DNA of 64,000 bases from Rhina ancylostomus (taxonomy: Eukaryota): positions 16,576,418 through 16,640,417 of the forward strand of contig JARFYF010000012.1 in assembly GCA_030265395.1 (NCBI GenBank), written 5' to 3'. The notes under the pieces were generated by a model that did not search any database, was not told where the DNA came from, and was given only the letters and a program-made list of their open reading frames with translations. Positions within the stretch are counted from its first letter, which is position 1. Each line of letters opens with the position of its first letter. Made by a program: the position numbers and the translations under genes. Positions 44,798 to 47,018 of this stretch are shown here, one piece after another.

Positions 44798-46313
44798 TAA
44801 ATCGACAGCTTTGGATACCAACAAGTATCAAGTCAACGTACATAATTGATGCTTTAACCAATTTACACGACTGCTTAACATTTACTGTAAAAAGTCCCAT
44901 AGCGGACTTTACGTCTGTGTAATCGTTATTCAAATGATAGTCAATGTCATACATGTCATTAATGCTATTAACCAGAATATAAAAGTGTTTTGTGGCTTAA
45001 TTACATTGGGAGTGGGTGGGCGCGGAAGTTCACTGAACATTTATCAGGGAAAAAATAAAATTTCAGCCTTAAAATGCACATTTTATTTGTTCTGGTGGTA
45101 TGTTCAAAACATCTGGCACTAATTTTGTTCATTGCAGGAAAAAGACAGCCCCACAGCAGTGGAATATATACATACAGACACGCACAAATAAAAACCTCAA
45201 CATATTTACATTTTAAAAAAATAGATTAGGTTTGCTTTTAAATCCAAGGAGAACACACTATCAAACCTAAGCCAGTGTTTGGGTATGCTCTAAAATATCA
45301 TTGAATGCAAGACTTTTGTTACACAACCCCACAGAGCAGTAACGCATACCAAAACCTCAAAAGTGAGGCTTTCCTGCAAACTCAAAAGGACCTTTCTGAA
45401 ATGCTCTGCGCATACTCCTTTTTAAAATTAAATATTATCCAATGCCTCTCAAAAATCTAAATGAGCACAAAAAAATTGGAAAAACAACTTGCTGTCTACG
45501 ATTCTACAAACACCTATTATATCTGTGGAGCGCCCTTCTTCTAATAATTTATTTAAACTATTCTTTTTCTGTTCAAACCTTCAGTAGCTGTGAAATTTTG
45601 GAGAGGATCACAGACACTATTTTAGTTTAAAAGGGAGCAATTATTCCATGGTGTTTTAGCTACTTTCTTAGACTGGAAAATGTAAAGCACTTAAAAATGA
45701 TAATTTTGTGTTTCATGATCCAACTGATGTCTCTGATTATAAAGAGTTAATTAAGAAAGCCCTCCCTCCCCTTCAAAATGACATTTAGATAGCACAAGGA
45801 AAAAGCTTTTTGCATTTGGTCTTGTACATGATTTGCATACTGTTGCCATCGAAAACAGCTTTGACAATTGAGCCATATTAAGAAACACTTTCTCAAACTA
45901 TATGAGTATATTTCAAATCGATTTTAAAAGTACAATTTAACTAATTGGAAGCATGACAGTGGAATGTCAGAATTCATTAGGATCCTAAAATGTAAATTTT
46001 GCACTAAAATCTGTGTGTAAAATATCTCAAACTAGATAGCTATAGAGAAAGAAAATCGGTATCGAGATGGTTAAAACAACTTTCCTAATGCAAATCCAAT
46101 GTTATGTTGCCTACAATTGTTTTTTCTTTTTTTTTGTTTCTTCTTCACAGAAGACATTCTTATGAAAGCAGTGTTACAAAGGTCACAGTTTCAAGTGTTG
46201 GATAGAAGGTCGCTACCTGAGCTGACCACCTCTTAACCACAGTGACTGGCCTTATCTGAAGCCCATCGGGTGAAATAAAATATAACCGTGCACTGTAGCA
46301 TACAGTAACTTAC

Positions 46314-46436
46314 CCAGCTGTTTAGATTGAGGTGCCAGCAACCAAACTGATGGAAAAAGGAGAGCCCAGAGGCTAACGTTCCTCCTTTATTGTTCCCTTC
46401 TTCCATTCCCAGCAAAATTGCATCCCTCGGGTACAT
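46314..46436 (-). CDS. TCF7L2: Candidate alternative first coding exon in intron 5 (41 codons, MYPRDAILLGMEEGNNKGGTLASGLSFFHQFGCWHLNLNSW), in frame with exon 6
   Basis: ggcggcATG Kozak-like start; 123 nt open to TGG|gtaagt, phase 0; exon 6 starts in phase 0. Confidence 0.6.
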
Positions 46437-47018
46437 GCCGCCTTGTCTTCTGTTGTCTCTTAACCTCTACAACTTTCCCCCCCTTTCTCTCTTGCCTTGG
46501 TGCCGACTGCGCTTTTGTTTCTTCCTGGTTTTTCTAGCGTCTTTTTTTAAAGTACTAAAAAAAGATGTCTCAAAAGATCAAGAGCTTCCCAGTTCTGTGG
46601 CCTGGTGTTTTTAGAACCAACATCCTCATTCAAGTTTGCCGTTGGTTGCATCTTAGTCCGGGTGCAATCCTATACCTGCTGTACAGCAGGGACCAAAATT
46701 TAGGACACAAACGATAACAGATCACTGCATCAAAATGCTCACTTAGGAATGAGCAAGACCGCACACACGGGTATAACCTCTTGCGTACTATTTATTTTCT
46801 TTTCAAAGCCTACAACTCTCCTAGGATTACCAAAATGACAATGCTGCAACTCTATATGGAAAGGTATCAATAAGAGCAGGAGAGAAGAGACAAGCAGCGG
46901 TTAAGGGAGCATGATCAACAAACTGTAGCATGCAGTCACATCTGTGGGAATGTCAAATCCCTCACGCTGAAGTTCTGGGGGTAGAGCTGTGAGAAAGCCC
47001 TATTTCTTGTCACAGTGA

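Follow-up and report, generated by a model that had tools for sequence, protein, structure and literature searches.

A conserved, probable alternative first exon in intron 5 of TCF7L2, whose 41-residue peptide is predicted to lead a short protein without the beta-catenin-binding domain

Promoters within intron 5 of Tcf7l2 that are active in the mouse brain (exons Ex1b-e) have been reported to produce a native dominant-negative TCF7L2 (PMC3468386, PMC6147171, PMC4963812). Nanopore sequencing indicated that about 50% of mouse brain Tcf7l2 transcripts begin at intron-5 exons, of which at least 10 were described, and a deletion of about 6 kb that included eight intron-5 exons led to loss of the short protein and impaired pup vocalisation (Qi 2023, PMC10208975). 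In passages of the same paper, a mouse dominant-negative construct, whose N-terminus those passages do not give, represses TOPFlash or acts without beta-catenin (PMC10208975). The short form has been described as a 35-kDa band in mouse thalamus (PMC3825142), and its size has also been quoted as 35-40 kDa (PMC3468386). According to a 2025 preprint, the two forms, long and short, are redundant in embryonic thalamus and act there in the same direction (Gabriel, 10.64898/2025.12.27.696670). Short LEF1 and TCF7 isoforms are likewise reported to arise from internal promoters (PMC4963812, PMC8651982). At the locus described here, in a ray, the explanation that we favor with good confidence is an alternative first exon in intron 5 that would give a short TCF7L2 without beta-catenin binding, its N-terminal peptide serving as a possible docking motif.

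Position and structure of the exon

The window, that is, the whole stretch of 64,000 nt that was analysed, comprises contig positions 16576418-16640417, and a full-length shark TCF7L2 was used to map the exons. The shark protein could be placed, one exon after another, on the same strand, with exon 1 at contig 16740423, 118 kb above the ATG of the alternative exon, and with exon 5 ending in phase 0 at contig 16673924. Intron 5 of TCF7L2 spans 61.9 kb; the alternative exon lies 51 kb into it and 10.7 kb above exon 6, a location in intron 5 upstream of exon 6 like that of the S-/dn-TCF7L2 first exons. Exons 2 and 3 read PPPRHSETF and AKRQDGGSLF, as in manta, stingray and electric-ray records and unlike shark and skate records, which makes a ray the most probable source. 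The original prediction had placed the region in intron 5 of a cartilaginous-fish TCF7L2, and both the exon mapping and these residues bear it out.

On the minus strand, an ATG at 46436-46434 (letters of the start region, gaagacaaggcggc) opens a frame of 41 codons that runs to 46314, its sequence from 46436 being gaagacaaggcggcATG and its translation MYPRDAILLGMEEGNNKGGTLASGLSFFHQFGCWHLNLNSW, with a second Met at codon 11. This coding part of the exon (46314..46436) ends in TGG, encoding W41, and is followed by the phase-0 splice donor GTAAGT (46308..46313), whose first intron base is 46313. Without splicing, the frame would add four codons (VSYC) and then stop. TCF7L2 exon 6 (35473..35605, minus strand), identified by its translation (SNKVPVVQ...DPKT) and by genome match, starts at 35605 after ...tttttgacag, likewise in phase 0, and its acceptor would be shared by both transcript types; 10,708 nt separate the alternative donor from it. 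Farther downstream on the same strand, a match to the first HMG-box exon (16841..17038; contig 16593258-16593455) would be kept in the short isoform. The number of codons, the TGG|GTAAGT donor and the phase agreement with exon 6 had all been proposed from the letters and were confirmed between 46436 and 46313.

A putative 5' untranslated leader, with a 5' limit presumed as in the earlier reading, occupies 46437..46620 (minus strand). Over the 109 nt before the ATG (46545-46437) it is 78% purine, in line with the purine-rich leader that had been proposed. An in-frame TAG lies 11 codons 5' of the ATG, at 46469-46467. Short frames also begin at three ATGs upstream (46651, 46629 and 46623), and each of them is closed by 46547. 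Within 600 nt upstream, the only AG acceptor that passed a polypyrimidine filter was at 46851, and no acceptor of good quality was found between the in-frame TAG and the ATG. A transcript start inside the intron would fit both the in-frame stop and the absence of a near acceptor. About 600 nt above the ATG, the window also carries a GT/AT dinucleotide repeat (47122-47020).

Two ATG|GTAAGT sites lie upstream on the minus strand, at 49168 and 48355, and these are likely ends of sister first exons (49160..49168 and 48347..48355), each of which would add Met alone to exon 6. GTAAGT occurs only 14 times in the 28 kb of intron 5 within the window, and two or more ATG|GTAAGT sites arose in 3 of 300 simulations of that sequence. 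Furthermore, records that read M-SNKVP exist for chicken, quail, marmot, zebrafish and percomorphs. We infer that first exons are clustered here as they are in mouse, over a region 10.7-13.6 kb above exon 6. Counts of homeodomain and TCF sites over 46437-50500 showed no clear enrichment over the intron. A fourth GTAAGT donor (53499-53485, minus strand) has an in-frame ATG three codons upstream (MVG) and falls in a 500-nt block adjoining the highest CpG count of intron 5 within the window; no record matching this MVG start was seen.

The 41-residue peptide has one copy in the genome (the next match in the genome search had E = 6.3), and no copy was found at the paralogous TCF/LEF loci of the same genome. 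Origin by duplication of another TCF7L2 exon was considered and rejected, a comparison of the peptide profile with the long form giving a probability of 0.1. Separately, exon matches of other TCF/LEF genes were seen on contigs C74, C52, C62, C63, C65 and C104; those to exon 5, exons 6-7 and one HMG exon are on C65, C63 and C104, not on the contigs where exon 1 and HMG matches occur, so that a TCF/LEF paralogue may be partly duplicated or divided between contigs. Within TCF7L2 itself, the C-clamp exon (14905-14850, minus strand) reads KKCRARFGLDQQNNWCGPC. Cartilaginous-fish records carry an extra segment, SNWASYQLQARSEETFIF, after this exon, and it is absent from the features located in the window.

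Homologues and competing readings of the exon

The combination of an open frame and a donor is by itself modest evidence and only modestly unusual. When the 28 kb of intron 5 within the window were simulated 300 times with a second-order Markov model, an in-frame ATG frame of at least 41 codons ahead of a GTRAG donor appeared in 190 runs; with the stricter donor G|GTAAGT, such a frame appeared in 8 of 300. A chance frame ahead of a donor-like site would be compatible with the first of these counts, and the exon is accepted as real because of its conservation, not because of the pattern alone. Homologues extend across jawed vertebrates, with E values down to 1e-24 and with start, length and donor in register, and this comparative evidence already refutes the chance reading, to which we give practically no weight.

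A search with the 41 residues gave one match among six candidates, isoform X18 of the little skate in RefSeq (XP_055502842.1), which is 95% identical, differs at two residues and runs from the peptide straight into SNKVPVVQ. When residues 1-52 of the skate protein were used, all 38 candidates matched, representing 34 named species that include skate, lizards, python, chicken, platypus, stoat, four rodents, cyprinids, salmonids and percomorphs; in 35 of them the peptide runs directly into SNKVP. With a profile built from 20 variants, 74 proteins were retrieved among 8000 scored, adding sturgeon, eel, chimpanzee ('isoform 29, partial') and frames from contigs. In total, 218 proteins were gathered, 150 of which contain the start of exon 6: 69 of these are led by the peptide and directly joined, another 38 start at exon 1, Met alone precedes exon 6 in 11, and 32 are of other kinds. 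The proposed join to exon 6 thus recurs in gene models from the skate onward, and the conservation of ATG, frame and donor that had been suggested as a check was found across jawed vertebrates. Cartilaginous and bony fishes split about 450 million years ago. The original prediction had also regarded the peptide as peculiar to cartilaginous fishes, a claim that fails, since bony fishes, reptiles, birds and mammals have the peptide too and RefSeq models already include it.

Records that contain the peptide and are not joined to exon 6 provide a further view of the donor. In 50 of 59 such records the last Trp is followed by V-S, as a GTRAGY donor in phase 0 would dictate, and the position of the donor is therefore conserved independently of annotation. 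Several unjoined homologous records read VCVC directly after the donor, which hints at a GT repeat beside the mammalian exon. Across 39 unique spliced pairs, identity to the window was 92% for residues 1-5, 47% for residues 6-23, 66% for residues 24-41 and 97% for exon 6; conservation is far lower in the peptide than in exon 6. Over the whole peptide, identity to the ray is 95% in skate and about 44-76% in bony vertebrates.

Thirty of the 38 records begin at the same Met, which weighs against the reading that the exon is an internal cassette of the long transcript, placed between exons 5 and 6, and no first exon at all. Two automatic predictions (P0045 and P0142) do place the peptide inside a full-length protein, and a T-rich AG at about 46565-46553 (minus strand), some 120 nt above the ATG, resembles a weak acceptor. 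If this AG were used after exon 5, in-frame stops or a frameshift would result. The in-frame TAG 11 codons upstream and the lack of a good acceptor between it and the ATG also oppose a cassette, as does mouse RT-PCR in which no exon was included between exons 5 and 6, a result that may concern another exon (PMC3825142). We regard the cassette as very improbable and an alternative first exon as the better reading.

The supporting records are computed gene models, many of them near-duplicates, and are related by descent. Among the 15 of 34 skate-cluster members listed, one cartilaginous-fish record carries the peptide and the other 14 are full length. Mouse, human, amphibian, coelacanth, shark and lamprey are all missing from the names of the peptide-bearing records listed, in which clustering at 90% hides members. 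A pattern search for homologous DNA in JGI metagenomes gave 101 matches, none of them confirmed, and another pattern search gave none. In six percomorph records (P0037-P0039 and P0046-P0048) the frame stays open far upstream of the conserved Met; the predicted extensions of 64-110 residues differ between species and are probably annotation artefacts.

The short protein and its N-terminal peptide

From the start of exon 6 onward, there is no Met within the first 101-105 residues in any of the 14 records checked, and a transcript beginning in intron 5 therefore depends on its first exon for an AUG. For short-tailed forms, initiation at an internal Met would yield calculated masses of 20-24.5 kDa, and a start supplied by the exon would yield about 32-39 kDa. 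The latter is close to the reported 35-40 kDa band, a fit and not a proof, given that gel size can exceed the calculated one. Residues 1-61 of the long form match beta-catenin-binding PDB chains (2gl7, 1g3j, 1jpw, 1jdh, 3ouw and 3oux); the peptide-led skate model (P0003) matched no such chain and kept its LEF1-type HMG match, in agreement with the proposal of a product from which the beta-catenin-binding domain is missing. The Pfam label 'CTNNB1_binding' (PF08347) on the skate model covers only profile positions 138-222 of 222.

Judged on these sequence comparisons, the exon very probably belongs to the set of intron-5 first exons described in mouse (Ex1b-e), and the original prediction was right in linking it to the mouse promoters. 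By analogy with mouse, the promoter cluster in intron 5 would drive transcription, chiefly in embryonic thalamus and midbrain; the short form would act on TCF sites without beta-catenin, either as a repressor or by redundantly taking the place of the long form. The label 'dominant-negative' that had been attached to the product is disputed, the 2025 preprint reporting redundancy of long and short forms.

The peptide itself shows signs of constraint. Among 58 unique 41-residue variants, M1, W34, L38 and W41 are invariant; M1 is fixed by the search pattern and the other three partly by the same pattern, yet W34, L38 and W41 were again invariant in a 20-row alignment made without it. W41 adjoins the donor and may be held by splicing. 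Near-invariant positions are G10, E12, K17, G19, G24, L/F27, L/F28, Q/H29, Q/H30 and G32. The second Met at codon 11, present in the ray as had been noted, occurs in 25 of the 58 variants and so lacks conservation. At changed sites, the mean BLOSUM62 score was -0.19 per sequence. A neutral simulation with comparable identity gave -0.83 (sd 0.41), and 59% of its trials also gained a stop; because the sequences share ancestry, this bias counts as a single line of evidence, not as 57. The peptide has 41 residues in 102 of 108 records, the in-frame variants being 35, 39 and 58 residues long.

Comparison with known domains and motifs was uniformly negative. No Pfam family was found on the peptide, a PDB search with a 20-sequence profile gave no match at E up to 10, and the ESM Atlas showed one match at 0.79, which is within chance. 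The motifs LxxLL, eh1, WRPW, PxDLS and the strict NES, in consensus form, were each absent from all 38 unique 18-mers of residues 24-41. AlphaFold2, run on a 24-sequence alignment, returned a mean pLDDT of 40, with residues 1-41 at about 36-42, and is uninformative since even the HMG box scored 50-66. No literature on an exon-specific N-terminal peptide was found in a search of texts other than subscription papers, figure images and preprint supplements.

The favored mechanism, suggested by the conservation, is that the peptide would form a flexible linker followed, in its C-terminal half, by a short hydrophobic docking motif (hydrophobic-x-x-hydrophobic-x-x-W-x-hydrophobic-x-L-x-x-W) for a cofactor or trafficking factor. 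Such a motif would set the peptide-led isoform apart from Met-only short forms. Of the 39 unique C-terminal 18-mers, 37 preserve the hydrophobic spacing, compared with 8% of shuffles, for a pattern chosen post hoc. The open frame alone is no sign of function because it must stay open to reach exon 6, and whether the peptide has a function beyond supplying the start could, on the sequence comparisons, go either way.

Alternatively, the exon may be real and its peptide a passenger, the ATG keeping the frame open and the DNA being conserved through promoter, enhancer or splicing elements. Met-only short forms (11 of 150 records) exist, and the peptide is therefore dispensable for making a short protein; its middle is variable and tolerates the in-frame indels noted above, Y2 varies (D, H), M11 is not kept, and no known motif, family or fold was matched. 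Against a passenger stand the conservative lean of the substitutions, the length fixed at 41 in nearly all records and, with its post hoc choice of pattern, the hydrophobic spacing. We consider a passenger a serious contender that falls somewhat short of an even chance; a linker with a docking motif and a passenger under DNA-level constraint would have about even odds.

A less probable reading is that the peptide is a localisation or stability tag that tunes the nuclear share of short TCF7L2, rather than a cofactor dock. The tag might be an export-like signal in residues 28-36 or an N-terminal degron, a role that an initial Met before a bulky hydrophobic residue can play. If Trp is allowed, an NES-like spacing fits 37 of the 39 unique variants, whereas the strict NES without Trp matches 0 of 38; 55 of 58 variants start with Met-Tyr, but Met-Asp and Met-His starts occur. 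Were the peptide to act as a docking motif, the short TCF7L2 pool might comprise at least two classes and no single truncated protein, a suggestion that we make tentatively and regard as rather doubtful.

Significance and comparison with known systems

Judged by its conservation and by existing gene models, the exon is real, and it most likely belongs to a known isoform class. Since the peptide is shared from skate to chimpanzee, it is no novelty of cartilaginous fishes, and with both the isoform class and the exon already on record the locus itself is no discovery. The interest lies in the peptide. In the mouse work, the first exons were removed together, in a block of 6 kb (Qi 2023, Fig. S15 legend, PMC10208975), and recent work describes a short form that regulates genes without beta-catenin, leaving cofactors to be found. 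A peptide kept across jawed vertebrates where the beta-catenin domain is lost would be an obvious candidate for cofactor contact. In addition, the coding sequence of this exon would pass for deep intron in analyses of the long transcript, and the gene is one with ties to neurodevelopmental disorder and type 2 diabetes.

Of the described systems, mouse dnTcf7l2/S-TCF7L2 is alike in its intron-5 position upstream of exon 6, in its several clustered donor-bearing first exons (a cluster that is predicted in the ray) and in the missing beta-catenin-binding domain, with an expected size of about 35-40 kDa for short-tailed forms. It differs in being described, in the portions of the mouse literature covered, as one truncated protein without an exon-specific peptide. 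RefSeq and GenBank models (skate XP_055502842.1, chicken XP_015144042.1, zebrafish XP_073773475.1 and the chimpanzee 'isoform 29, partial') carry the same peptide on SNKVPVVQ; unlike the reading proposed here, they are computed and give the peptide no function. The short isoforms of LEF1 and TCF7 are alike in that an internal promoter drops the beta-catenin-binding domain, but they belong to other genes and other introns, and the genome search found no copy of the peptide at the paralogous loci.
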